From an uncultured Actinomycetota bacterium (GTDB lineage Bacteria > Actinomycetota > Actinomycetes > JAFAQI01), in NCBI GenBank assembly GCA_963789615.1, contig CAWBLI010000001.1, forward strand, positions 308,685 through 372,684: DNA of 64,000 nucleotides. Reading direction: 5' to 3'. Under the pieces are notes generated by a model, which did no database searches, was not told where the DNA came from, and was given only the letters and a program-made list of their open reading frames with translations. A program made the position numbers and the translations under genes. Below, piece after piece: positions 165-50,418 of this stretch; position 1 is the first letter of the stretch, and every line of letters begins with the position of its first letter.

Positions 165-1780
165 ATGACCGACGGCGTGGTGATCGGGGCAGGCCCGAAC
201 GGGCTGGTCGCCGCGAACCTGCTGGCGGATGCTGGCTGGTCCGTCGTGGTGGTCGAGGGCGCCGACCGGCCGGGCGGCGCGGTGAAGTCGGCCGAGGTGA
301 CGGCGCCGGGATTCACCAACGACCTTTTCAGCGCGTTCTACCCGCTCGGGATGGCCTCCCCGGTGATCCGTGACCTGCGGCTCGAGGAGCACGGGCTGCG
401 CTGGACGCATGCGCCGCAGGTAGTCGCCCACCCGACCGACGACGGCCGCGCGGCCGTGCTCTCCCGCGACCTCGAGACGACGGCGGAGTCGCTGGCGGCC
501 TACCACCCGGCGGACGGCCCGGCCTGGCGTGAGCTGGTGACGGAGTTCGAACGGATCCGGGAGCCGCTGCTGGACGCGCTGTTCCGGCCGTTCCCGCCGG
601 CTCTCCCGGCCGCCCGGCTGGCGCGGTCGCTCGGCACCGGCGGCCTGCTGCGGTTCGCGCGGTTCGCGACGCTGCCGCTCCGCCGGTGGACCGAGGAGAC
701 GTTCCAGGGTGCCGGCGCGCCGGCGTTGGTGGCAGGGAACGCGCTGCACACCGACCTCGGACCCGACTCGGCTGGCGCGGCCGTTTTTGGCTGGCTGCTG
801 TGCATGCTCGGCCAGACCGTTGGCTTCCCGGTGCCGGTCGGAGGTGCCGGCGCACTCACCGATGCACTGGTGACCCGAGCGAAGTCGCGCGGCGTCGAGA
901 TCGTCTGCTCGGCACCCGTTGCAGCGGTCGTGGTGTGCAACGGCCGGGCGGTGGCGGTCAAGACCCAGGATGGCCGCGAGATCGCGGCGTCGAAGGCGGT
1001 ACTCGCGGCGGTCGACGCACCGCAGCTGTTCACCGAGCTGATCGGCCCGGGCGAGCTGCCGCCCCGGATGCTGGCCGACCTGGGGCGCTTCCAGTGGGAC
1101 AACTCGACCGTGAAGGTCGACTGGGCGCTGGACCGGCCGATTCCGTGGGCGACGCCGGGCTGCGCTGATGCCGGGACTGTGCACCTCGGCGGCGACCTGG
1201 ACTCGCTCGGCCGCTACACGGCGCAGCTCGCGCTCGGCGAGGTCCCGAGCCTGCCGTACGCCGTCGTCGGCCAGATGACCACGACCGACCCCACCCGCTC
1301 CCCCGCCGGAACCGAGTCGGCCTGGGCGTACACGCACGTGCCGCAGCGGATCAGGTCCGATGCCGGTGAGGACGGCATCACCGGCAGCTGGGACGAGCGC
1401 GAGGTCGAGGCGATCGTCGGCCGGATGGAGGCGCGGATGGAGCGGCGGCGCCCCGGCTTCGCGGCAGCGGGTCGTCGCCCGTCACGTGCTGGGGCCGTGG
1501 GCGTTGCAGGCGGACGACCGAAGCCTGTGGAAGGGCGCGCTCAACGGTGGGACCGCCTCGATCCACCAGCAGCTGTTCTGGCGGCCGGTGCCGGGGCTGG
1601 GTCGACCCAGAGACACCGATCCAGCGGCTGTACCTGGCGTCGTCGTCCGCTCACCCGGGTGGCGGGGTCCATGGTGGCTGCGGCGCGATCGCGGCGACCA
1701 CCGCACTGCGCGACGCCGGGGTACTAGGACCCCTCCGCCGCGCCGCGAGCCGGGGCCTGCAGCGCCGGATCTACGCCTGA
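165..1780 (+). pseudogene. NAD(P)/FAD-dependent oxidoreductase, phytoene-desaturase (CrtI)-like family; frame broken twice near the 3' end
   Basis: ORF 66..1727 has the dinucleotide-binding motif VVIGAGPNGLVAANLLADAGWSVVVVE. The expected C-terminus is split over two other frames: RVVARHVLGPWALQADDRSLWKGALNGGTASIHQQLFWRPVPGLGRP (ORF 1360..1986) and RLYLASSSAHPGGGVHGGCGAIAA (ORF 1547..1780). Frame changes fall near 1460 and 1605. Start taken at ATG 165. Confidence 0.8.
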
Positions 1781-3413: not shown

Positions 3414-4772
3414 CTACATGCTCGCGATCAGCTTCTCGACCCGGTCGTCGACCGAGCGGAACGGGTCCTTGCACAGTACGGTGCGCTGAGCCTGGTCGTT
3501 GAGCTTGAGGTGCACCCAGTCCACCGTGAAGTCACGTCGCTTCTCCTGGGCGTGCCGGATGAAGTCGCCCCGCAGCCTCGCCCGGGTGGTCTGCGGTGGC
3601 ACCGACTTGGCCTCAAAGATCTTCAGATCGGTGGTGACGCGCTCGGCGGCGCCGCGGCGTTCCAGCAGGTAGTACAGGCCGCGGCGGCGGTTGACGTCGT
3701 GGTACGCCAGATCGATCTGCGCGACCCGTGGCGAAGACAGCGGCATGTCGTGCTTGGCGCGGTAACGCTCGATCAGCTGGTACTTCGCGACCCAGTCGAT
3801 CTCGCGCTCCACCAGTCCGAGGTCGCCGGTGTCGACCGCCTTCAAGGTCCGCTCCCACAGCTCGAGCACCTTGTCGGTGGTCGGGTCGGAGCCGCGTCGC
3901 TGCACGAAGTCACGGGCCTTGATGAAGTACTCCTGCTGGATCTCCAGCGCGCTCGCCTCGCGACCGTTGGCGAGCTTCACCTTGCGCCGACCGGTCACGT
4001 CGTGACTGACCTCACGGATCGCCCGGATCGCGTTCTCCAGGCTCAGGTCCCGCATCACGATGCCGGCCTCGATCATGCGCAGCACCAGGTCCGTGGTACC
4101 GATCTTGAGCATCGTCGTCGTCTCGGACATGTTGCTGTCGCCGACGATGACGTGTAGCCGGCGGAACCGTTCGGCGTCGGCGTGCGGCTCGTCGCGGGTG
4201 TTGATGATCGGGCGGCTACGTGTCGTGGCGCTGCTCACGCCCTCCCAGATGTGCTCGGCCCGCTGGCTCACGCAGTAGACGGCGCCGCGGGGCGTCAGCA
4301 GCACCTTCCCGGCCCCGCAGATGATCTGCCGCGTGACGAGGAACGGGATGAGTACGTCGGCCAGCCGGCTGAACTCGCCATGCCGGCCGACCAGGTAGTT
4401 CTCGTGGCAGCCGTAGGAGTTGCCGGCCGAGTCGGTGTTGTTCTTGAACAGGTAGATGTCGCCGGCGATGCCCTCCTCGCGGAGCCGTCGCTCGGCGTCC
4501 ATCAGCAGACCCTCGAGGGTGCGCTCGCCGGCCTTGTCGTGGGCGACGAGCTCGATGACGTCGTCGCACTCGGGCGTCGCGTATTCGGGGTGTGAGCCGA
4601 CGTCGAGGTAGAGCCGGGCGCCGTTCTTCAGGAAGACGTTGCTGCTGCGCCCCCACGAGACGACCCGGCGGAACAGGTACCTGGCAACCTCGTCCGGTGA
4701 GAGCCGGCGCTGGCCGCGAAACGTGCACGTGACGCCGTACTCGTTCTCCAGGCCGAAGATACGGCGGTCCAT
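3414..4772 (-). CDS. pafA: Pup--protein ligase PafA
   Basis: [18 protein letters not shown]...[21 protein letters not shown]...[28 protein letters not shown]...[35 protein letters not shown] is near-collinear with mycobacterial PafA as I remember it, including the LIASM end. Start moved to the internal ATG 4772, giving 452 aa. Confidence 0.95.
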
Positions 4773-5268
4773 CCTAGAGCACCCCACTCCACTTAACAGC
4801 ACTGTTTGTGCAGGTCAGAGCCCTAGTTGAGTGGAGCCCAGTGAAGTCGGGTGTCGGCCAGTCTCGGGGACTCTTGGCAAGAATCCGCCAACTGGCAAAC
4901 CAAGAACTAGTAGGTGCCCTCCCCGGTGAGGGCCGGCGAGAGGGGTCGACGCGATGCCGAAGCGAGCGGTTCGTATGCGCCGGCCGTCGCTGCCCGCTGA
5001 GGCCAGCTGGGACGAGATGAGCTTCACGGACCTGGTCAACGAGCACTACCTGCCGACCTAAGCCCACGCCAGCCCCATCACAAGGAAGAACCTGGCATCC
5101 CATGTTGGAGACGGTACCGGCCAACCGGCCCGGGCGGGCGCCAAGAACGCCCGGGCGGCCCGGTTCGCCCTGGCTGTACGTCTTCAGGCGGCCTCCGATC
5201 GCGGCGATCGGGCCGCAGCAGATCCGGGCTGGGCTGTCGAGGGTGGGAGGTCGTGACAGCCTGGCTCG

Positions 5269-13042: not shown

Positions 13043-14602
13043 CTACGTGGTGGCCGGGTCCGAGCTGACGGCCCCGGCCGCCGCTGGCGGGTGCTGCTCG
13101 AGGCCGGTGGTGGCGGGCTCGATGAGGTCCAGTCCGGCGTGGTACACCGCCACCGTCGCCTTGCCGGCGCGTTTGGCGGCGTAGAGCGCAAGATCGGCGC
13201 GCTTGAGCATCTCGGTGGCACTCACGGACGGGTCCTCGGCACGCATCACGGCGATCCCGATGCTGGCCCGGACCGGGATGTCGCAGGAACCGAGCCGGAC
13301 CGGGGCATCTAATGCGGCGAGCAGGCGGGCGCCAAGCGCGACCGCGTCGCCGGCGTCCTCCATCAGGACGGTGAACTCATCACCACCGAGTCGCGCCACG
13401 GTGTCGCCGCGACGGGCGGTGGCTAGCAGCCGCTCACTGACCCGGACCAGCAGCTCATCGCCGGCGGGGTGACCGAGCGTGTCGTTGACGTGCTTGAACT
13501 CGTCGAGATCGATCAGCAGTAGTGCCAGTGGCCGCATGTCCCGACGGTGCAGATCCAGGGCATGGATGAGCCGGTCGTTGAACAATGCCCGGTTCGCCAG
13601 ACCGGTGAGCACGTCGTGGAACGCCTGATGGGTGATCCGGGCGACCAGGAGCCGGTTATCCAGCAGGACCAGGATCTGACGGGTCACCAGCATCGCGATC
13701 ACGATCGCGGCTCCGACGACGATCGCGTCATCCGCCGGCTGGGAGCCGCGAAGCCGCCACAGCGAGACGACGAGTGCGAGGGTCGCGGGCAGGTACGGCA
13801 GCAGCAGCGCGGTACGAGGCGGCGCGTCGAGACCCGACCCTTGCTGTTCGGACGACGCCGTGTCGAACCAGGCGGCCAGCGCCAGCACCAGAAACCCGGC
13901 GACCCAGCCGACGTCGATCAGGTTGCCGGTGGCATAGCGACCTGACGCGGTGAGGTACGCGAACCCGCTATCCGCCACCGAGAGCCCGATCAGCCCCGAC
14001 GCCACCCAGAGCAGCCCGGCCCGCGATCCGGTCCGGGCGTAGGCGACGACGATCACGGCCACGGTCAGCACGATCACGTCGCTGGCCGGGTAGGCGAGGC
14101 TGACCACGGTGGCCAGCGTCGAGTCGCCACCGGCCCGGTAGACCGCACCCAGCGCGGTCGCCCAGCTCAACACGAACAGGGACGCGGCGACCAGCACCCC
14201 GTCTAGACCGATCCGCAGCCGGCCCTTACCGTCGAACGCGCGGCTCGGCCGGATCAGGATGCCGATCAAGGCGAGCGGCGGTAACAACAGGTAGCCCACG
14301 TCGGCGGCTGACGGAAACGGCGTCGCTCGATTCGCGATCACCTCGTAGTACGTCCACACGCCCTGCCCCGCCCCCCAGCAAGCCAACCCGGACGCGATCA
14401 AGACCCACGAGGTCCGCAGTCGCCACCGGGCGCGACGCGCCCGCAGCGCCGCCGCTAGCGATGCGCCACCCGCCGCAAGCAACTGCGCCAGATCATCGGC
14501 ATCACGCGTCAGGTGAACGCCGCCAGGCTGCATCCGAAGATCCACGACGAAACCGGCCAGGACGACCGCAACGACAGCCAGCAGCACCCGAGGTCGCCTC
14601 AC
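13043..14602 (-). CDS. Membrane-anchored diguanylate cyclase (GGDEF domain)
   Basis: About 300 aa of multiple TM helices, then LTGLANRALF...LLLIDLDEFKHVNDTLGHPAGDELL...RLGGDEFTVL...SIGIA...ADLALYAAK. Confidence 0.9.
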   Translation of the reverse strand: MRRPRVLLAVVAVVLAGFVVDLRMQPGGVHLTRDADDLAQLLAAGGASLAAALRARRARWRLRTSWVLIASGLACWGAGQGVWTYYEVIANRATPFPSAADVGYLLLPPLALIGILIRPSRAFDGKGRLRIGLDGVLVAASLFVLSWATALGAVYRAGGDSTLATVVSLAYPASDVIVLTVAVIVVAYARTGSRAGLLWVASGLIGLSVADSGFAYLTASGRYATGNLIDVGWVAGFLVLALAAWFDTASSEQQGSGLDAPPRTALLLPYLPATLALVVSLWRLRGSQPADDAIVVGAAIVIAMLVTRQILVLLDNRLLVARITHQAFHDVLTGLANRALFNDRLIHALDLHRRDMRPLALLLIDLDEFKHVNDTLGHPAGDELLVRVSERLLATARRGDTVARLGGDEFTVLMEDAGDAVALGARLLAALDAPVRLGSCDIPVRASIGIAVMRAEDPSVSATEMLKRADLALYAAKRAGKATVAVYHAGLDLIEPATTGLEQHPPAAAGAVSSDPATT

Positions 14603-37550: not shown

Positions 37551-39438
37551 GTGGACACGGCGTTCGAGGCGTTCTGCGCCGGCGGGCTGTGGCCGGGGCT
37601 GGGCCGTGACGACGGCCGGAAAGCTCGCCACTGCCCACGTCAACGGGCCCGACGACGTCACGGTCGATCGGCTGCTCGAGATCGACGGCATGTCGAAGAA
37701 GCGCGCCGAGAAACTCGTGGTGACATTCCGCGATGCCGCGCCGCGGTTGGCGGTTGCCCGGCTGCTGCACGCCGCGTCGCTGCCGGTGCGGCCGGCGTTC
37801 GGCGCGGTCGACGAGCTCGGCCGGGCCGCCGAGCGCACCCTGCTCGAGGATCCGTGGCGGTTGCTCGATGTGCCGGGGGTCCAGGTCAACGAGGCCGACC
37901 GGTTCGCCATCACGACCCTCGAGGAGCGCCCGACCAAGGACGACCCACGTCGCGGGCGCGCCCTCGTGGTCTACGCCTTGGTGCGGGCGGCTCGCGACGG
38001 GCACACGGTGATGGGCGAGGACACCCTGGTGGCCGCGCTCGGGGGCATCGGCGCCCCGGAGCCGACCGCGGCAGTGGCGGCCGCGCTGGAAGACGGCCGG
38101 GTGGCGGAGTTCACGTCGTACGTCGAGGACGGTACGCCGGTGCGCCTGCTCGGCCTGGTGCGCTACGCGATGGCCGAGGAGCAGGTCGCCGAGGGGCTGG
38201 CCCGGCTGGTCGCGACAGCGACGCCGCTCGCTACGCCCGAGGGCACCACGTCCGTGACAGGTGGTCTCGACCCGGCGCAAAAAGCCGCGGTCCAGCAGGT
38301 CGCCGCGCACGGAGTGACGGTGCTGCACGGCGGCCCCGGCACCGGCAAGTCGCGGACCGTCGCCGCCGTCGTGGACCTCGCCGAGGCTCGCGGCCGGCAG
38401 ATCGCGCTTGGCCGCGCCGACCGGGCGGGCGGCGAAGCGGTTGGAGGAGCTCGCCGGCCACGCCGCGACCACGCTGCACCGGCTGCTCGGCGCGCAGGGC
38501 ATGACCGGCGAGTTCGTGCGAGGAGAGACCTGGCCGCTGGACGCCGAGGTGGTCGTCGTCGACGAGGCCTCGATGCTCGACGTGGAGCTCGCCGCGGCGC
38601 TGCTCGACGCGTGCGCCGACGGCACCCACCTGCTGCTCGTCGGCGACCCGGCGCAGCTGCCGTCCATCGGGCCGGGGCGGGTGCTCGGCGACGTCCTCGA
38701 CAGCGCCGTGCTGCCGACCACCGAGCTGACGACGCTGTACCGGCAGGCCGAAGGCGGCGCGATCGCCCGGCTGGCCGCCGCCGTACGGGAGGGGTCGCTG
38801 CCCGCCGGTCGACGACCCGACCCGTGAGGTCGTCGTCGTGCAGGCCCGCGGCGGCGATCAGGCCGCGCACCGCGTCGTCCAGCTGGTCACCGACTCGATC
38901 CCGCGAGCCCTCGGCATCCCCCCGAGCGACGTCCAGGTGGTGACACCCGGTCCATCGCGGTCCGGCTGGCACCCAGGCCCTCAACGTGGCGCTCAAGGCG
39001 TGTCTCAACCCCGGCACCGGGACGGTCGGCGGCTTCGACGTCGGCGACCGCGTCGTCGCGACCGCGAACCACATGGACGACGGGTTCGCCAACGGTGAGG
39101 TGGGGACGGTCACCACCGCGTCCGACGGCGCGCTGACCGTCGAGTTCGGCGCCGGTCCGGTGACGGTCGGGCCGAAAGCGATCGGAGACCTGGTCCACGG
39201 CTGGGCCGTCACGGTGCACCGGGCGCAGGGCTCGGAGTGGCCGGCGGTGGTCGTGACGCTGCCGGCCGAGGCCGGCGGGATGCTGTCGCGGCCGCTGGTC
39301 TACACGGCGCTGACCCGGGCGCAGCGGCACCTGTCGATCGTGCATGCCGCGGGCCCCGCACTGGCCCGGGGCGTGCACGACGTCGACGCGCGGCCCCGTC
39401 GTACCCGGCTGGCCACCTTGCTGCGCGGTGAGGACTGA
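37551..39438 (+). pseudogene. RecD-like (SF1B) ATP-dependent DNA helicase; at least four frame changes
   Basis: Pieces in four frames: VDTAFEAFCAGGLWPGLG (37551), TTAGKLA...VLHGGPGTGKSR (Walker A, ORF 37606..), AAPTGRAAKRLEE...VVVVDEASMLD...LLVGDPAQLPSIGPG (ORF 38408..38827), then VVVVQARGGDQ and GFDVGDRVVATANH...WAVTVHRAQGSEWPAVVV...LVYTALTRAQRHL (ORF 38986..39438). Confidence 0.8.
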
Positions 39439-42211: not shown

Positions 42212-42299
42212 GTCGGAGTGGCGGAATGGCAGACGCGCTAGCTTGAGGTGCTAGTGCCCTTTATAGGGCGTGGGGGTTCAAGTCCCCCCTCCGACACCA
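42212..42299 (+). tRNA. tRNA-Leu (anticodon GAG), type II with long variable arm, CCA encoded
   Basis: Hand-folded cloverleaf. Acceptor GTCGGAG/CTCCGAC. D-arm GCG-GAATGGCAGA-CGC. Anticodon stem CTAGC/GCTAG with loop TTGAGGT. Variable arm GCCC-TTTATA-GGGC. T-arm GGGGG-TTCAAGT-CCCCC. Discriminator A plus CCA. Confidence 0.95.
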
Positions 42300-42382: not shown

Positions 42383-43960
42383 TTGAGGGTTGCCATGGCG
42401 CGCGGGTCCGACGTCGCCGTGCCGATATCACTTGGCCCGCCACGCCTGCAGTCGGCAGCCGGTGGTCGGAGGGAGCCGCAGTACGACTGTCAGATCCCCC
42501 CGGCGAGCCCGCCTGACATCGAACGAGGACACCGAGACGTGACCGAGAGCGCCGTTCTCGAGGGAACCCCCTACTCCTTGCCATTCGAAGCCGACGCCGA
42601 GTTGCAGAAGCTGGCAACAGATACCGAGGAGATCCGGACTGTTGTCGCATCGGCGAGCAAGCGCGCAGCCAGCCAAGGACTCCTCGACAACTTCCGACAA
42701 AATCAGCGATACCGAGAGGTCTACGAAAGCAACGCCTTGGAGCTTGAAGGGCCAGACCTTGCAGGCACCGTGGCTGCGCTTCGTTCGGCGCTGGCGACAG
42801 ACATGGATCGGACGCTCTCAGAAAACCTGCTTCCACGCCTTCTTGCAGACGACCCGGACATGCACGCTGTCATCGGGCTCGAAGCAGCCCGGCAGCACGC
42901 CGCGCGCTTACTTAGCTCTAGCGGCGCGAGGCCGCTTACCGAAACCGACATCCGGACGCTTCACGAACTCATTACGCGCGGTCATGACTTCGCCGGCCAG
43001 TACAAGCGCTACCACGTGTTGTTAGGAGGACACACAAAACACGAGCCGGTCCTGCCCATCGAAGTGTCTCTGCACATGGGAAGGCTGACGACTTGGAACG
43101 GCCGTTGCGTAGACGAGAATCCGATTCTTCGAGCCGCGGCGCTCCACGCCTGGATGACGCACATACATCCATTCGAGGATGGGAACGGCCGCGTCGCCCG
43201 GCTCTTGGCAAATCTGACACTCGCTCAGGCCGGACTTCCTCCCGCCATCGTAAAGGCACGAACACAGCGGACTGACTACCTGGACGCTCTTGCTGTTAGC
43301 GATGAGGGCGGCGACATCATGCCGTTAACGGGTCTGTTCACCAAGACCCTGCTGCGTTATGCCCAAGAGATGGAGAAGCCTAGGTTCTTCCGGAAACTCT
43401 TCCACGACCTCATCGAGAGCCGAGGCAGCACCATCCACGAATGGTTTACTCGTCAGCTCGAGAGCTTTCTGCGGCAGTTGGCGGGCGAACTCGCGGCATT
43501 CAAGATTGAGTCTTACGTCGGCGACGCGGTCGACCGTGAGACGTTTGAGGCCTACCGCACCGGCCAGCGCCGTGAAACAACGATGGTCCGGCTAGTGCAA
43601 TCCCCAGAGGGCGCTCAGATCGCCGTTCTGGTCGGCGCGCCTAGTCGAGGAGTTACACGGTTCACTGAGGTTAGTGACATGTGGCCATCGATTCAGTTCG
43701 CGATAAGAAGCGACCGCTACAAGCTCAACCCGTACGACGTTCCGGGGGCTCGCCAACTGTCGAGAATGCGTGAAGTCTATTTCGATCCCGATGGTCCCAA
43801 GGCCTTCGCCTGGGTTGAAGATCGACTACTCCACGGCGATGTTGCGAAGATCGCCGAAATCGCTGCGGACCGAATCCGCGTTGCCCTCGCCACGAAAACG
43901 GTAAGCGATGTCGATCGGATCTTTTATAGACCCCCGACAGTCGATGGCGGTCCGGGATAG
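42383..43960 (+). CDS. Fic-family protein (AMPylase-type motif) with ~200-aa uncharacterised C-terminal extension
   Basis: Canonical Fic motif HPFEDGNGRVARLL at 43166..43207. N-terminal YESNALELEG resembles the class-II inhibitory helix. The start is uncertain (42383 GTG, 42395 ATG or 42539 GTG). Confidence 0.9.
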   Translation: MRVAMARGSDVAVPISLGPPRLQSAAGGRREPQYDCQIPPASPPDIERGHRDVTESAVLEGTPYSLPFEADAELQKLATDTEEIRTVVASASKRAASQGLLDNFRQNQRYREVYESNALELEGPDLAGTVAALRSALATDMDRTLSENLLPRLLADDPDMHAVIGLEAARQHAARLLSSSGARPLTETDIRTLHELITRGHDFAGQYKRYHVLLGGHTKHEPVLPIEVSLHMGRLTTWNGRCVDENPILRAAALHAWMTHIHPFEDGNGRVARLLANLTLAQAGLPPAIVKARTQRTDYLDALAVSDEGGDIMPLTGLFTKTLLRYAQEMEKPRFFRKLFHDLIESRGSTIHEWFTRQLESFLRQLAGELAAFKIESYVGDAVDRETFEAYRTGQRRETTMVRLVQSPEGAQIAVLVGAPSRGVTRFTEVSDMWPSIQFAIRSDRYKLNPYDVPGARQLSRMREVYFDPDGPKAFAWVEDRLLHGDVAKIAEIAADRIRVALATKTVSDVDRIFYRPPTVDGGPG

Positions 43961-44059: not shown

Positions 44060-45323
44060 TCAACGTGTGCTGGTCTTGCCGCCAACGACGAGTTCCGTCA
44101 TCAGGGCGGCGGCCCTGGCAGATCGTTCCTTGAGGACGTGGGAGTAGACGGTTCGGGTGACGACGACGTTCGTGTGTCCGAGGAGCTGCGCGACGATCTG
44201 GTCGTCGACGCCGGCGAAGATCATGGCGGTTGCGGTGGTGTGCCGGGTGTCGTGCAGCCGGAGCATCGGCAGCGGCTTCTCGGGGTGCTCCTTGTTGTAG
44301 CGGGTGATCATCCGCTTGAACGTCCTCGACAGGTGGTCGGGGTGTAGCGGCGTACCGGACAGGCCGTCGGGCTGGTTGCGGCCGTCACTGACAAACACGT
44401 AGTCCGACTCGAACCACCGGCCCGGCGGCACGGGCCACCTCGCGGTCAGCATGCAGTCGGTCGCGGTGCCGTTTCATGATCTCGATGAGGACGCCGTCGA
44501 GGGGCAGGAACCGGCCGCGGCCTTGTCCCTTGGTGGTGTCGCGTTCGATGACATGGCCGTTCATGGTGGTGGTGCGGTTTCGGGTGAGGGCGAGCGTCCC
44601 GTGTTCGAGGTCGACGCCGTCCCAGCGCAGCCCGAGTAGCTCGCCTCGTCGGGGGCCGCGGGTGAAGTAGAGCCAGAACAGCGCGACGAGGGGGTGGTCC
44701 TCGTAGTGGGTGAGGAACGCCAGGATCTGCTCGGGCTGCCAGATGTCGTAGCGGCCTTGGTCGGAGAGCGCCGGCGTCCGGGGCATGTCGTCTTTGCCGA
44801 TCTGGGTGCACGGGTTGGTGCGTCGCAGTGGTGGGTCTTGGGTGATGGCGTCTCGGAAGCAGGCGCGGAGGATGTTGTGGATGTAGGCGACGCTTCGTTG
44901 CGACAGCGGGCCGCGGCCGCCGGGGCTGCCCTGGGCCATGAGCCGGTCGTAGAGCCGGGTCAGGTTCTTCGGGCCGACGTCACGGACCCGGATCGGCCCG
45001 AGCTCGGGGCGGATGTGGAGTCGGATGTCCTTGCGGTAGGACTCGTGGGTGGTCTCGCTGAACCGGCCGAGCCGGACCCGTCGGGCGAGGATCTCGTCCC
45101 ATTGGTCGAGCCACTGGTTCATGGTCACTGGGCTGGCGATGTCGGGGGCGCCGTCATGGGTGGCGTCCCGGTCGGTCTCGGCGCGGATCCAGCGGGTGGC
45201 CGCTGCCTTGCTGGGGAGGCCCTTCTTCCGGCGCCGCTGGCCGAGGACGGTGACCTCGGCGGTGTAGGTGTGCGTGGCGGGGTTGAGGTAGACGGTGCCC
45301 TCTCCCCTGCTGCGTCGCCCCAC
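44060..45323 (-). pseudogene. Tyrosine recombinase / phage-type integrase; one frame break
   Basis: N-terminal and core-binding part are in ORF 44385..45323 (GTG start, ...RRGELLGLRWDGVDL with catalytic Arg). The catalytic C-terminus is in ORF 44060..44452 (LRLHDTRHTTAT..LLGHTNVVVTRTVYSHV = HxxR, H, Y). The break is near 44430. Confidence 0.9.
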
Positions 45324-45344: not shown

Positions 45345-45551
45345 TCAGAGCCGACCGGCGTTGCGTGACATCCAGGCGCGGAGGTCGCCGGGCTCGAACC
45401 GGAGTTCACGGCCGAGCTTCAGCGCCTTGAGTTCCCGGCGGTGCCGGTACACCCAGTCCTTGCTCATCCGCAGGATCGCCGCGACTTCATCGACGGTCAT
45501 GAGCGGCTCGAGCGCAAGGGGGTTCCGGGGATCTGTGGATAACGAGGTCAT
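45345..45551 (-). CDS. Excisionase-family / MerR-like HTH DNA-binding protein
   Basis: LMTVDEVAAILRMSKDWVYRHRRELKALKLGRELRFEPGDLRAWM is the typical helix-turn-helix_17 excisionase pattern. It lies immediately upstream of the integrase. Its ATG overlaps the relaxase stop (ATGA). Confidence 0.75.
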   Translation of the reverse strand: MTSLSTDPRNPLALEPLMTVDEVAAILRMSKDWVYRHRRELKALKLGRELRFEPGDLRAWMSRNAGRL

Positions 45552-48406
45552 CGGCCTCTCCCGTAGTCGCGGCCGTAGTCGTCGTCACGGCTTGATCGGC
45601 GGAGTGAGTAGTAGTCGTCGTCCCGGTCGTACGTCCGGAGCTGTGCGCTGGCGAGCCGCTGCCGGCGGCTCTGCCGGAGCCGTTCCCTGACCTCGGCGGT
45701 GAGGGCACGGGTGTCACGTTCCGGGGTGGGTCGGACCGGTCCGCACTCGGCGGCGGCTGGGCTGTCGGCGGTGAGGTAGAGGTGGTTGGCGGTCCGGCCG
45801 CGGGACAGCGCGACGTAGCCGTGTTCGCGGGTGAGCGGGCCGAGCCCGTAGACCAGGGTGGTGTCGACGGTGAGCCCCTGGGCCTTGTGGACGGTGGTCG
45901 CGTAGCCGTGTGCGAGGGCACCGCCGGCGAGCCAGGTCGGGTCGAGGGTGACCTGGTGGTCGTCGGACAGGGTCAGCTGCAGGTGCCCGGTCGTGGTGTT
46001 GACGGTGGTGACGGTGCCGCGGGCGCCGTTGATCAGGCCGCGGCGGCGGTCGTTAGCGGTGACGAGCACCTGGTCGCCGACCCGGTAGGAGCGCTCGCCG
46101 GCGTCGGTGGCGATGGTCAGCTCGTCCGGACCGAGTACGCCGGTGTCGATGAGGTGCGCGCGGATGGTGCGGTTGAGGGCCGCGACGTCGCTGCGTCGGG
46201 CGGCGAGGACGAGGACGTCGTCGCCGCGGTCGCATGCTGCCTGGTAGTCCGCCGCGATCTCGGCGAGCAGCGCGTCGCTGTCTGGGGCGGTGTGGATCCG
46301 GTCGTGCGCCTGGTAGGCGTCGAGTGCGGTGACCGGATCGCCGTCGCGGAGTCGTTGCAGGGCGTCGCGTTCCCAGCGCTCCTGCTGGCGTTGGTTGCCG
46401 GCGAGCCGGATCGTCTCGGCGCGGTTCGCGAGGGTGCCGAACAGGCCGCCGGCGCCGATCTCGGGGAGTTGGTAGGGGTCGCCGACGAGGACGAGCTTGC
46501 CGTCGGCGGCGTCGATGTGGCGGATGAGCCGGGCGGCGGCGCGGGTGTTCACCAGGCTCGCCTCGTCCAGCACCATGACCACTCCGGCTGGGAGTCCGTG
46601 CCGGTCGGCTTCGAACAGGGTCTTGGTGAGGCTGCTGGTCGGGAGGCCGGTCGCCCATTCGAGCTGCTGGGCGGCGAGCCAGGACACGGTCACTCCCTGG
46701 ACCGGATGACCGGCGCACCGCCAGATCCAGGTCGCGCTCGGAGAGCGCGGCGGTCTTCCCGGCGCCGGCTGGCCCGGCGACGACGTCGACGCGACGGCCG
46801 GAGCTGACCAGGGTCGTGACCATGGCGGCCTGCTCCTCGGTGAGGTCGGCACGCTGTCGAGCTCCCGGTCGAGCAGCCACGACGCTGGCCAGCCGACCGG
46901 CCGGGCTGGCGCGGCGTGGCGACGGCGGCAGCGCCTCTTGCTCGGTGTCGAGCAGCTCGCGGGTGGTGTAGCGGCGCTCGACGCCGTCTCCGTTGACGAC
47001 GGGGATCACGTCGGGGCGGCTGGTCAGGTCGAGGACGAGCTGGTCGAGGTCGTCGAGGCGGACCGGGGTTCCGGCGGGCAGTGCCTCGCAGAGCGCGCGG
47101 GCCAGGTCTTGCTTGGTGAACGTCGTCCGGTCCGCCGTCACCCCTTCCGGTCCCAGCAGTCGTGCCGCGAGCTCGTCGATCCTCGGGCCGGTCGGCACTC
47201 CGGCGACTCCGAGGACGGAGGCGATGGCGTCCGGCTGGAGCCCGGCCGCGGCTGCTTCCTCGCGCCATCGGTCGCGCAGCATGCCGACCGGTTCGTGGCG
47301 TTTGGCCGGGCGGGTGTCCAGGCACGCCGCTTGGGCGGACTTTCGCGCCGGTCTTGCCGCGACGGGCCAGGGCCGCGGTGATCTGGGCGCGTCGTTTCGA
47401 GAACTGGTCGATCGATCGTCCGTGGGATGCCGTCGATGTCGGCGATGCCTCGTCGTACCGGGGTCCAGCCGACGCCGAGGGTGCGGGTGAGCTCGCCGCG
47501 GAGCACCGCGTGGTAGACGCTGCTGGCGGTTCGGGCGTGCCGGTAGACCGCGGCGGTGTCCATCGCCGACCACTGGCCGTCGGCGCCGCGGACCAGGTTC
47601 GGGATCACCAGGTGGGTGTGCAGCTGCGGGTCACCGGCCCGGCTGGTGCGATGGTCGAAGCCGGCGATGATCAGACCCGTCGGTGCCGATCCGCGCCGCC
47701 CGGTGACCGTCGCCGTGATGACCGCGGACCGCGGTCGCAGCGTGCCGCTGCAGGTAGCTGATCACCTCACCGACCGCGAGCTCGTGCGCCGCCCGGGCGG
47801 CGCGGGCGATCGCCGGGTCGCCGAGGGCGAACAGGAAGCTGACGCTCTTCGGTGCCGACACGGTCACGTCCAACCCGGGTCGGCGGACGTCGACCCGGTC
47901 GTCGGCGTGACGGAGCGCTTCGGCGTACCGGTCGGTGCCGTCGGGCTGCGGTACAGCGCGACCGGATCCAGCCCGTACGACGCGGCGACCCGCCGGACCA
48001 CGTCGACCGTGAGCGTCGCGGACCGGCCCGCCGCGATCCGGTTGGCCGCGGCCTGCAGGCTGGCGGTGTCCTTCCGGCTGAGGGTGATCGCTACAGCCTC
48101 GGCCGTCCGGACGGCCTCGATCGCGTGAACGAGCGGCTCGGCGGCGAGCCGGCTGCGGGGGTCGGCGCGCAGGACCTGCCCGACGAGCCGGTCGCCGTCC
48201 GCTGCGCATCCGGTGAGCAGCGCCCGCAGTGCCTGCTCTCCCGACTCGTCGAGCCGCCCGTTCAGGCCTAGTGCCGCAGCTCCGTCACCGAGCCAACGAC
48301 CGCGGCTCTCCCCCGCGCCGGTGTAGTAGTCCAGCTCGCAGCCGGCCTGCCGGTCCAGGTAGTAGGCGGCTGCGTCCGCGGCGCTGATGCGTCCGATGGA
48401 GATCAC
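45548..48406 (-). pseudogene. MobF/TrwC-type conjugative relaxase fused to a RecD-like helicase (TraA-like); at least five frame changes
   Basis: Relaxase N-terminus VISIGRISAADAAAYYLDRQAGCELDYYTGAGESRGRWLGDGAAALGL (ORF 47864..48529). DVTVSAPKSVSFLFALGD and HHGDGH..GFDHRTSRAGDPQLHTHLVIPN (HxDxxxRxxDPxLHTH) are split between ORFs 47631..48209 and 47138..47608. Helicase Walker A VVAGPAGAGKT (ORF 46053..47573 frame). C-terminal helicase in ORF 45548..46852 (VMVLDEASL, LVGDPYQLPEIGAGG, TVHKAQGLTVD). Confidence 0.85.
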
Positions 48407-48590
48407 GCGCGCAGAATGAGATGCAGGCGTACCCACAAACGTACCCACGCCTGTCACGTGTGACAGGTAACGAGCGTGAAAGTCGTCTCGCGGGGCCGGG
48501 CTCTGTGGCGGCGATATCGCCGTCCCCACTCGTCACTGACGGGTTAGAACGGCTCTGGAACCTGTCTCAGCCGCGTCTTACGCTCGATCC
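48407..48590. promoter_or_regulatory. Divergent control region between relaxase and Zn-ribbon gene; candidate oriT/operator
   Basis: Direct repeats CGTACCCAC at 48428..48436 and 48440..48448. Palindrome CCTGTCAC-GT-GTGACAGG at 48450..48467. Perfect 12-bp palindrome GGCGATATCGCC at 48510..48521. Confidence 0.35.
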
Positions 48591-48980
48591 GTGAGCGGGA
48601 AACGGGCCTGCGTCTGCGTCTACTGCGGCGCGACTTTCTACACGCCACGCAAGCCGGGACCCCGCGCGCAATACTGCCGCCCCGCCCACCGGCAACGCGC
48701 GTACGAGGATCGCCGGCGTGCCCGCGAGGCTCAGGACAGCGCTGACACCACTGACGAGGTGCAGGCGCTGCGCACCCGCGTCCGGCTTCTCGAGCTCGAC
48801 AACCGCAAGCTCCGCGAGGCCCTCACCGAGACCGAAGCCGAGATGTATCGGCTGAACCGCGAGCTGCATCCTCTGCCGCCGGCCCTCGCTCAGCTCACGG
48901 CTCGTGGCCTCGGCGCGACGCCCGAGCCGACTGAGGCGACCGCGACCCAGAAGCGTCGCTTGCGTCGCCACCAAGCCTGA
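48591..48980 (+). CDS. Small zinc-ribbon plus coiled-coil protein typical of actinobacterial plasmids and integrated elements (function unknown)
   Basis: CVYCGATFYTPRKPGPRAQYCRPAHRQRAYEDRRR, followed by the heptad-like LRTRVRLLELDNRKLREALTETEAEMYRLNRELH. GTG start. Confidence 0.5.
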   Translation: MSGKRACVCVYCGATFYTPRKPGPRAQYCRPAHRQRAYEDRRRAREAQDSADTTDEVQALRTRVRLLELDNRKLREALTETEAEMYRLNRELHPLPPALAQLTARGLGATPEPTEATATQKRRLRRHQA

Positions 48981-49038
48981 GCAACCCCCGGACAGCCGTC
49001 CGTATCGCCGTGCGGAGCACGGCGATACAAGGGTGTGC

Positions 49039-49194
49039 TGGGGAGGTGGGGTGTGGGAGTGAGGTGGGTGAGGAGGGTGGGAGGTGGTGAGGGGAGGAGG
49101 AGGGGTGGGAGGGGTGGGTGAGGAGGAGGGGTGGGAGGTGGTGAGGAGGAGGAGGGGTGGGAGGAGGAGGAGGTGGGAGGAGGTGAGGGGGATG
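49039..49194 (+). repeat. 156-nt cytosine-free G-run tract (imperfect ~26-30 nt tandem units, e.g. GAGGAGGAGGGGTGGGAGG x3)
   Basis: Base-by-base scan finds no C on the plus strand between C49038 and C49195. There are more than 15 runs of GGG or GGGG separated by 1-7 nt. Confidence 0.9.
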
Positions 49195-49463
49195 CTGATG
49201 TACGGCCAAGCCCGCACATATCTCCGCGTCCCCACCGGCATGTCAGTAGGCCGGCGGCCCCCAGTAGCCGGGCCTGGCGTGAAGGGCCCGGAAGAGTCCG
49301 GCGGTCAGCTCGACCAGCGTGACTCCGGTCGGCGCGTCGTATCCGTGGCAGGCCAGCACCTCGCCGAGGCGGCGCGTCGGTTCGCCAGGCGCCAGGTACT
49401 CCGGACGGGTACTTCGTGCAGTCCCGGCTGCAGTTCGAGGGGTAGCGAGCCGACGCTGACCTG

Positions 49464-50418
49464 ATGAGCGATTTGACTGTCGCCCGATGGCGTAAGTACG
49501 GCAAGGACCGGCTGTATGTGACGGCACCCGACGGCACACGCCTCGGCTGGAGAGACCTGATCAGCGGCGAGGAGCACCTCGAAGCGGTCATCGGGCGCGG
49601 AAGAGCTCAGGCGAGCGGTCGACGGCTGGCTGAGCGAACAACCGCCAGTCCCAGCCGCCGCCACAGCTTCGCTGGCGGTGGCCAAGGCCGCAGCGGAGAC
49701 GGATCCCCCTGCACATCAGACGACCGACCTGGGGAACCCACCTGTTGCTTCCATGCCGATCCAGGACTCGGCGGCACGGCCGGTTCAGACGTCGCCAGAC
49801 TGGGAGGACCTAACTGCTCACCGGGCCGGTGCGATGGCGCGACGGCAGGCAGTCGCCCTGAAGGAGGCGGCGCCGGTCCGGACGCTCCTCACCCGAGTGC
49901 TCGGCGTTCACACCGACGAACGGGCGTGGCGCGTCGGCGCAGACGGCGAGGAGAAGGTCGCCGCCCAGCTCGCCAAGCTGGCGAAGAAGGACCCGCGCTG
50001 GCGGTTCCTGCACGCGGTCGAGGTCGGTCAGCGTGGCAGCGATATCGACCATGTCGTCGTCGGACCCGGCGGGGTGTTCACGCTGAATGCGAAGCACCAT
50101 CCGAACGCCAAGATCTGGGTCGGTGGGAACACCGTCCTCGTGAACGGGTCGCGCCAGCCGTATGTGCGGAACAGCCGGCACGAAGCCAGTCGGGCCACGA
50201 AGCTGCTTACCGTCGCGTGCGGGTTCCCGGTGTTCGTGACGGGGGTCGTTGTTCCGGTGGGTGCCGACGACCTGAGGGTCAAATCGCAGCCGGACGACGT
50301 ATATGTCGTCAGCCGGATGGGACTCGTCGGCTGGCTCCGGGCGCGCCGCCTTGTCCTCGACGAGGCGACGATTATTCGCATCTTCGACGCTGCACGTCGG
50401 TCCACCACCTGGCGATAG
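49464..50418 (+). pseudogene. NERD (nuclease-related domain) protein; one frame break
   Basis: N-terminus MSDLTVARWRKYGKDRLYVTAPDGTRLGWRDLISGEEHLEA (ORF 49464..). The rest is in ORF 49678..50418: ERAWRVGADGEEKVAAQLAKL..WRFLHAVEVGQRGSDIDHVVVGPGGVFTLNAKHHPNAKIWVGGNTVLVNG..YVRNSRHEA. The break is near 49600. Confidence 0.75.

Follow-up and report, generated by a model that had tools for sequence, protein, structure and literature searches.

A cytosine-free, G-rich tract at the predicted nick of a putative MOBF-type origin of transfer in an actinobacterial mobilizable element

The sequence comparisons presented here suggest that a 156-nt run of DNA devoid of cytosine, found in a 64-kb stretch of an uncultured Actinomycetota bacterium (assembly GCA_963789615.1, contig CAWBLI010000001.1, positions 308,685 to 372,684; this whole stretch of 64,000 nt is called the window), sits at the predicted nick of what appears to be a previously undescribed MOBF-type origin of transfer (oriT). 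The tract (49039-49194 on the plus strand, G109 A27 T20 C0, bounded by C49038 and C49195) lies inside a small element integrated at a tRNA-Leu gene, and not beside a mobile element as a first reading of the sequence had it (here the original prediction). It starts 2 nt past the predicted nick site (nic), C49038 being the second base after the nick. Most probably it is a hyper-expanded, G-rich form of a strand-asymmetric leader that starts at the oriT nic of a small integrative mobilizable element. The comparative evidence favors one of the roles listed in the original prediction, that of a transfer-associated structure of the element, and our overall reading, which we put forward tentatively, is of an oriT-linked single-stranded or G-quadruplex (G4) leader that might act as a landing pad for a helicase or a coupling protein.

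In a window of ~69% GC with C at 33.8% (pC = 0.338), C-free runs of 156 nt have an expected count of ~2e-24 per 64 kb; apart from the tract, the window holds no run longer than 22 nt without C, nor any longer than 19 nt without G. The original prediction had called the run far beyond chance and had described more than 15 GGG or GGGG runs, imperfect tandem units of ~26-30 nt in three copies, open reading frames (ORFs) across it in all three minus-strand frames, and a position near the stops of a Zn-ribbon gene and of a minus-strand gene, all of which was borne out. We counted 17 runs of three or more G and found the 19-mer GAGGAGGAGGGGTGGGAGG three times, at 49094, 49120 and 49146, a spacing of exactly 26 nt (TRF reports imperfect periods of 26, 42 and 54 nt); the ORF list leaves 3/3 minus-strand frames open, and the tract begins 58 nt after the Zn-ribbon gene stop (48980) and ends 48 nt before the minus-strand stop codon (49243-49245). 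The motif GGAGG occurs 75 times on the plus strand of the window, 19 of them in the tract, which raised the idea of an SD/anti-SD sponge; what relatives share, however, is composition rather than GGAGG. The tract is not an artefact of a single assembly, a concern voiced with the original prediction, since an independent metagenome contig from another sample (L001, JGI 3300066538) has at this position a homologous G-rich tract, ~125-135 nt long and including three C. In both tracts the non-G bases favor A over T, unlike the T-rich rest of the family.

Immediately 5' of the tract stand the inverted repeat and nic core listed in Table 1, and the 71-nt region with this hairpin folds at -19.1 kcal/mol (z = -4.8). 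Relatives were gathered from genomes and metagenomes with the relaxase N-terminus and the Zn-ribbon protein as queries, and all of them proved to be metagenome-derived. Across this set the same arrangement appears at 19 non-redundant sites as a GTATC…GATAC inverted repeat, an 8-nt spacer and then G (usually GC), and each of the 19 lies beside a related relaxase gene or the gene of its Zn-ribbon partner; the window holds one copy of the motif. The GTATC/GATAC base of the stem is near-invariant, with CTATC at two of the sites, and the spacer reads AAGGGTGT or one of the variants AACGGTGT, CAGGGTGT, CGGGGTGT, AAGCGTGT and AAGATGTGT, giving the consensus AA[G/C]GGTGT/G. The inner stems (0-7 further pairs) and the loops (2-5 nt) vary among sites; changes inside the stem are compensated, as at the sixth base pair, which is G:C or C:G, and the proximal arm and the core or spacer are fixed, a pattern also known from R388 (PMC4176350). 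Two of the features that mark a MOBF oriT are found here: a TrwC-family cognate relaxase is encoded alongside, and just 5' of nic stands an inverted repeat that keeps its proximal arm and lets its distal arm and loop vary.

By comparison with known sites the core (C)AAGGGTGT/G fits an 8-9-nt spacer ending in a G-T-x-T U-turn, and when the window CAAGGGTGT/GC is aligned on the GTGT U-turn with F and R388 the nick is predicted on the plus strand between T49036 and G49037. Oligonucleotides of F put nic at GTGGGGTGT/GGTGC (PMC5422253), and the window core agrees with F GTGGGGTGT/GG at 6/9 positions and at the first base after the nick. In R388 the nic sequence is GGTGCGTATTGTCT/ATAGCCC, and the layout of the spacer in GTATTGTCT/A is the same as in the window (PMC4814116). 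A homology breakpoint points to the same base: relatives L003 and L047 are ~85-100% identical up to …GATACAAGATGTGTG and their homology collapses at the predicted nick, exactly after …GTGTG, with an identical hairpin and nic core at L003 9388 (minus strand) and L047 3413 and unrelated sequence beyond the nick. Such a breakpoint would fit a nic that serves as a module or recombination boundary, as this comparison suggests. Because MOBF relaxases stay on the 5' end generated at nic, which enters the recipient first (PMC4176350, PMC5422253), GC and the 156-nt tract would form the leading 5' end of the transferred strand, and the relaxase gene, located 5' of the hairpin on that strand, would enter the recipient last.

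Moreover, we found that the DNA 3' of nic is strand-asymmetric throughout the family. Sites were oriented on the nicked strand and profiled in 50-nt bins over 16 sites (those other than the window, L001 and L002). GC skew is ~0 from -450 to 0, takes the values +0.33, +0.29 and +0.32 in the bins from 0 to +150, and is +0.01 beyond +150; over the same intervals TA skew goes from ~-0.12 to between +0.2 and +0.33 and then to small positive values. From the upstream interval to the 0 to +150 zone the frequency of G rises from 0.33 to 0.42-0.45 and that of T from 0.14 to 0.19-0.22, as C falls from 0.35 to 0.22-0.25 and A from 0.18 to 0.11-0.14. The zone lies above its flank at 16/16 sites (Wilcoxon p = 3e-5, an optimistic value because the loci are phylogenetically related), and the cumulative skew reaches its maximum at 135-190 nt from nic in most loci, the tract here being 156 nt long. 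The orientation of the skew tracks nic whichever strand carries the relaxase gene, which is the nicked strand in L007-L018, L022 and L023 and the opposite strand in the window, L001, L003, L005, L045 and L047. The window and L001 are the extreme, with a GC skew of +0.9 to +1.0 over the same length. Markedly C-poor leaders of 130-140 nt, another variety of the same C-depleted zone, are seen in L047, where the G/T-rich DNA after the nic core (3414-3555) has G 0.36, T 0.41, C 0.15 and A 0.09, and in L005 (~1600-1735, minus strand), where it is G/T-rich and poor in C and A. The sequence of the zone is not conserved (mean column identity across relatives 46%), and a search at its far end, ~150 nt from nic, turned up no element conserved among relatives. 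L003 and L006, the closest fully syntenic relatives (same synteny, Zn-ribbon protein 47% identical), have mild skew only and no tract, so that a tract is not required for this type of oriT.

Some further sequences close to nic may be recorded here. In L007-L013 and L016, where the relaxase gene is on the nicked strand, the first 12-20 nt past the predicted nick, immediately 3' of the nic core, carry GCTGACTGACTG or GCTGGCTGACTG, where the window has GCTGGGGAGGTG. In L042 (1020-1075), L043 and L044 (3122-3175) we see …GGACACACCTCTTGCATCC straight after the Zn-ribbon stop; its reverse complement, GGATGCAAGAGGTGTGTCC, resembles an inverted nic core, with no obvious GTATC/GATAC hairpin there.

The physical consequence of this composition is clearest in the window. 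The minimum free energy (MFE) as single-stranded DNA is 0.0 kcal/mol for the tract and for its complement, compared with -34.7±6.3 (range -53 to -15) for 156-nt windows of the same sequence, and neither strand can form Watson-Crick hairpins because one lacks C and the other lacks G. With a G-quadruplex term the energy model predicts -97 kcal/mol for the G strand, and G4Hunter gives 1.6-2.2 per 50-nt bin; four or more runs of three G with short loops are also present, and on these measures the G strand is G-quadruplex-prone. The several tandem G-quadruplexes of the original prediction hold in part: the strand is indeed G4-prone by the prediction tools that were to be applied, whereas strict motifs are fewer than had been implied, with one only (loops <=7 nt, 49091-49114), three non-overlapping motifs at loops of <=12 nt and nine two-tetrad motifs. 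H-DNA, also proposed at first, is a weak candidate, as the tract is 87% purine and 13% T, with 20 T interruptions, a longest pure-purine run of 17 nt and a longest homopurine mirror repeat of 15 nt. Outside the oriT region, the only other canonical G4 motifs in the window lie at 5226-5247 (plus strand) and 13985-14022 (minus strand).

A comparison of the window with L001 shows how the tract has evolved. Identity is 90% in the relaxase gene, 87% in the Zn-ribbon gene, 86% in intergenic DNA and 95% in the hairpin and core; the first 14 nt of the tract are 100% identical, the remainder is 64% identical with 33 gap columns, identity just right of the tract is ~60%, and beyond ~49400 no similarity is left. 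From these regional identities the tract is hypervariable and lies at the edge of a conserved module. The proposal of an island boundary or recombination hotspot gains partial support from the drop from 86-90% on the left of the tract to ~60% on the right, and the length polymorphism that was to be sought in relatives is there (156 nt against ~125-135 nt in L001). For a slippage-prone contingency tract the length polymorphism is in favor, and it ends there, since we see no conserved ORF and no promoter-like site: phase variation would place the repeat in a coding region or promoter, and here no frame is conserved and the tract follows two convergent stops. A scan for promoter and terminator consensus sequences around the tract likewise gave nothing, intrinsic terminators included. 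A similar tract in homologous elements, another expectation of the original prediction, is present at the same position in L001 and replaced by mild skew in L003/L006; the extreme form arose within one lineage.

The position of the tract, its composition, the conserved motif, the absence of hairpin potential and the skew across the family are observations; the site of the nick, the identity of the transferred strand, the folding of G4 structures and any binding of proteins are deduced from them. How such a leader would work can be outlined with some caution. We regard it as possible, and no firmer than that, that it provides an open, hairpin-free and G4-prone region for helicase loading, a signal to a coupling ATPase, or both. 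The leader would be the part of the oriT handled as single-stranded DNA, and once displaced the G strand could form several G-quadruplexes. Its freedom from hairpins might leave a stable open region 3' of nic on which the helicase form of the relaxase could load, in the manner of F, in which the 3' side of nic, after becoming single-stranded, receives a second TraI molecule acting as a helicase (PMC5422253). The leader could also present a structure-based signal to the coupling ATPase of a helper. In the sequence examined neither the window element nor its relatives encode a coupling protein or secretion system, and the relatives, which are compact modules made up of oriT, relaxase and integrase, must rely on a helper; a signal of this kind would suit an element without a coupling protein of its own. 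On this reading the tract itself grew through slippage of 26-nt and 3-nt units. A bolder version, which we consider unlikely, is that the C-free leader is a sequence-independent structural 'boarding pass' that keeps the oriT open in 70%-GC DNA and is recognized by the coupling ATPase or helicase of any helper, so that a minimal element could hijack unrelated conjugation systems. If this were true, the milder G+T-rich zone of ~150 nt would be the in vivo footprint of the open relaxosome. To our knowledge no such oriT feature has been described.

Several observations weigh against a functional leader. The position of the nick is predicted from analogy and from the homology breakpoint, and the relaxase and integrase frames in the window are broken, so that transfer may be lost in this copy. 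Only the lineage of the window and L001 has the extreme tract, and this oriT type does without it elsewhere; the relatedness of the loci also tempers the significance of the family skew. By our estimate, neutral divergence of ~14% would bring in only 2-3 new C per lineage, and with 0 observed in the window and 3 in L001 the lack of C is weak evidence for selection. Strict G4 motifs (loops <=7) are rare in relatives, with none in L001 and 2/16 among the other sites (L013 and L018); they are not conserved at the same place, the shared trait being an excess of G over C, and the zone in relatives is only modestly less structured than its flanks. Finally, deamination of an exposed single strand would be expected to leave just this combined excess of G over C and of T over A, and the family skew could be a mutational footprint without function.

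This last point is the core of the main rival, an alternative we find rather doubtful and nevertheless take seriously, in which the tract is oriT-linked and functionless. The ~150 nt 3' of nic would often be exposed as a displaced single strand, in open relaxosomes or through abortive nick-and-extend, giving C-to-T and A-to-G changes; a G-rich seed (…GTGT/GGGG…) would then have been expanded by slippage into a minisatellite in one lineage and tolerated in a decaying copy. The rise of G+T and the fall of C+A across the family are the classic asymmetry of single-strand deamination, and the low identity among leaders agrees with it, as do the leaders of L003 and L047, which are wholly different despite an identical hairpin and core. 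The interior of the tract has also changed faster than its neutral flanks (64% identity and 33 gap columns, where intergenic DNA keeps 86%), the three identical 19-mers at exact 26-nt spacing look like a recent duplication, L003/L006 manage without a tract, and the relaxase, integrase and NERD-domain genes have broken frames in the window. However, deamination predicts a leader that is T-rich and not one of 70% G with A over T, and both strands of an open bubble would deaminate, so the asymmetry needs an extra assumption such as a protected complement. The sharp and similar length of ~150 nt in both gene arrangements and the near absence of C kept in two lineages fit a defined functional footprint as well, and G-rich elements of oriTs have experimental precedent (PMC8152469). 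In a separate reading the tract drives a transcription-dependent opening of the oriT by an R-loop: read-through from the Zn-ribbon gene, which is transcribed towards the hairpin and tract, would give a G-rich RNA that hybridizes stably to the C-rich template and displaces the transferred strand for nicking and helicase loading, or primes replacement synthesis. An excess of G over C on the non-template strand favors R-loops and the hairpin lacks a T tract; since only the transferred strand is exposed in an R-loop, this variant would also account for the direction of the skew. Against this, several relatives have either no gene or an unrelated transposase gene upstream of the hairpin, and we know of no conjugation system that needs an R-loop at nic; we judge it quite improbable.

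Transcription termination deserves similar scrutiny. Rho binds C-rich, G-poor, unstructured RNA, and the RNA copied from the minus strand of the tract, read from the small convergent gene, would be such a molecule, a 156-nt Rho utilization (rut) site with 0 G and 109 C (70% C) and an MFE of 0, shielding the oriT and the Zn-ribbon and relaxase genes from antisense read-through. The stop of this convergent ORF, which like its C-terminus is conserved in L001, precedes the tract by 48 nt on that strand, and the consensus scan showed no intrinsic terminator. A Rho loading site in such an RNA is physically plausible. A terminator or insulator is still improbable in our view, because in all relatives the skew tracks nic rather than transcription units, including many loci in which the zone lies upstream of the relaxase gene and on the same strand, where a C-rich RNA could come only from antisense transcription of the relaxase gene; the Rho reading does not explain these data. 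In addition L003/L006 share the gene layout without such a tract, and 156 nt with zero G far exceeds what a rut site needs. That the tract codes for protein (a linker rich in Pro, Ser and Thr if read from the minus strand, a peptide rich in Gly, Glu and Trp if read from the plus strand), or that it is an assembly artefact, is scarcely credible. All minus-strand frames are open and the JGI gene caller predicted an ORF of 39 aa on the tract of L001, yet the matching ORF in the window is cut off by a stop after 9 codons, the window and L001 share no conserved frame and their tracts align with 33 gap columns, and none of the ORFs that span the tract satisfies the GC3 test, as genuine genes here do. 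As for an artefact, L002, a 569-nt ENA contig, ends (559-569) at …ACAAGGGTGTG, the base where the tract would begin, which shows how poorly such DNA assembles; the occurrence of a tract at that same place in the independent contig L001 nonetheless speaks for real DNA. The end of L002 suggests that short-read assembly breaks at such tracts, which are possibly under-represented in databases.

Returning to the oriT-linked leader, we compared it with known systems. R388 and F resemble the window in having a TrwC-family relaxase and an inverted repeat followed at once by a spacer of 8-9 nt with GTxT at its end; next comes the nick, which in the window is predicted. Like the window family they combine a conserved proximal arm and spacer with a free distal arm and loop; R388 cannot do without the proximal arm of IR2 and the single-stranded spacer, and accepts changes in the loop and distal arm (PMC4176350). 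The F and R388 oligonucleotides, which reach 19-22 nt 3' of nic, contain no long C-free tract (PMC5422253, PMC4814116). Unlike R388 and F, the clade described here has no match in PLSDB and the element is a small integrated module without a coupling protein or secretion system of its own. Further downstream of nic we know of no C-free tract in F or R388 either. G4 DNA has been linked to transfer before: TrwB of R388 prefers G4 DNA and has its ATPase stimulated by it, TraB of the Streptomyces plasmid pSVH1 recognizes G4, and the minimal oriT of pIGRK has a G-rich putative G4 that is needed for transfer and not for nicking (PMC8152469, PMC7434980). The window shares with pIGRK a G-rich, G4-prone sequence in or next to the oriT of a helper-dependent element, here 2 nt past the predicted nick. 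In pIGRK this is a single motif, removed by a 29-bp deletion, on a 33%-GC plasmid with a tyrosine-recombinase-type relaxase, whereas the window has a 156-nt C-free array at the predicted nick of an HUH relaxase oriT in 70%-GC DNA. Imperfect G-run tandems on one strand, with G4 and R-loop potential and fast turnover of length and sequence, are also familiar from immunoglobulin switch regions, the insulin-linked polymorphic region and telomeric repeats; unlike the tract, these G-rich minisatellites are eukaryotic and are not tied to the nick of a conjugative relaxase. With rut sites the RNA of the minus strand has in common that it is C-rich, G-free and unstructured, and differs in that the orientation of the skew in relatives follows nic. 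On balance we rate the tract as belonging with the known oriT-associated G-rich elements.

How the coupling proteins of helpers recognize mobilizable elements, and how an oriT melts in very GC-rich genomes, are still poorly understood. The locus offers a precise and testable predicted oriT for an uncharacterized clade of actinobacterial relaxases, and its tract, with 156 nt and no C, is the naturally occurring extreme of a leader zone found in milder form across the clade, allowing a direct test of the published idea that G4 or single-stranded structure near nic is a transfer signal. Should the skew prove to be a mutational footprint, it would give a sequence-only read-out of the extent of single-stranded DNA around nic that could be applied to other oriT families.

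The element that carries the tract has the order tRNA-Leu, Fic-domain gene, integrase, TrwC/MOBF relaxase, Zn-ribbon gene, oriT (Table 1). No second copy of the 3' end of the tRNA-Leu was found in the 64-kb window, and the far border of the element is thus undefined; Rfam gave no family within 40-56 kb besides the tRNA. The Fic gene has a GC content of 0.59-0.65, compared with ~0.70 elsewhere, and may be a separate acquisition. The succession of relaxase and integrase is the same in related loci. The gene for the relaxase starts 510 nt from the tract, and two of its fragments match Pfam TrwC (PF08751, E = 2.6e-10 and 3.6e-11); the N-terminus carries a YY…DYY motif, alignment of homologues shows HxD…HTH, and the C-terminal fragment matches AAA_30, RecD-like SH3 and UvrD_C. 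One of the breaks in its frame is a 1-nt deletion relative to L001 that lies outside any homopolymer. Split genes occur within the element (integrase, relaxase, NERD) and also outside it (a RecD-like helicase, 38408-39438), and the broken frames may reflect real decay or pseudogenization, or else indel errors of the assembly.

Table 1. Coordinates of the oriT features and of the genes around the C-free tract, in positions of the window.
Feature	Position	Strand	Remarks
tRNA-Leu(GAG)	42212-42299	+	ARAGORN, Rfam; likely integration site
Fic-domain gene	42383-43960	+	Pfam PF02661, E = 3.9e-17; between tRNA and integrase; cargo
Tyrosine integrase, two ORFs	44060-45323	-	Pfam Phage_integrase, Phage_int_SAM_3
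TrwC/MOBF relaxase-helicase	45548-48529	-	Pfam; frame broken into at least 3 ORFs
Zn-ribbon + coiled-coil gene	48591-48980	+	divergent from relaxase; 59 homologues found
Inverted repeat GTATCGCCGTGC-GGA-GCACGGCGATAC	49002-49028	+	perfect 12-bp stem; counterpart of R388 IR2
nic core AAGGGTGT/GC	49029-49038	+	predicted nick T49036/G49037
Small convergent ORF	49243-49539	-	C-terminal part and stop conserved in L001; N-terminal part disrupted
NERD-domain gene	49464-50418	+	Pfam NERD, E = 2.4e-13 on ORF 49678-50418; frameshift near 49600-49680

The Zn-ribbon protein has few close relatives, two of which gave contigs (L001 and L002). At every locus that shows both genes (L003/L006, L045, L047 and L048) a Zn-ribbon homologue adjoins the TrwC relaxase gene, and its product would be a candidate accessory protein of the relaxosome. 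The small convergent ORF (…GEVLA[CR]HG[YF]…TLV…AL…) is seen at 49243-49400 of the window (minus strand), at 1528-1708 of L001 (minus strand), where it appears frameshifted, and at 3566-3856 of L048 (plus strand), where it adjoins the Zn-ribbon gene; it thus accompanies that gene in either orientation, and Pfam gave no match to it. Ahead of the NERD-domain ORF an upstream ORF runs from 49464 in another frame, a point at which similarity to L001 has already gone, and to the right of the element the genes are ordinary chromosomal ones (an amidase, a LuxR-type regulator and an MFS transporter).

The clade of TrwC-like relaxases (loci L003, L005-L018, L022, L023 and L045-L048) was seen only in actinobacterial metagenome bins, assigned to Mycobacteriales, Nocardioidaceae, Sporichthyaceae, Nonomuraea and others. 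PLSDB plasmids gave no match to 48400-49300 by blastn or to the relaxase N-terminus by tblastn, and an exact-pattern scan of metagenome contigs for the hairpin and core gave 0 matches; a protein-guided metagenome scan gave 5 loci, with the motif in two. Viral contigs scanned for a 17-mer of the tract and for the nic core yielded chance matches only, in unrelated and mostly lower-GC DNA with no comparable tract. In L009 and L016 a tyrosine integrase follows directly after the relaxase gene, and in L012 and L017 a tRNA-like sequence lies downstream, which suggests that members of the clade are compact mobilizable oriT-relaxase-integrase elements. Transposase genes are also met in these surroundings: a transposase-like ORF in L012 (4656-5549, not checked against Pfam) ends at the oriT hairpin, a Transposase_mut gene in L041 (727-1992) lies directly downstream of a shortened Zn-ribbon gene, and an ISL3 transposase gene in L016 (298-1656) lies upstream of the module.

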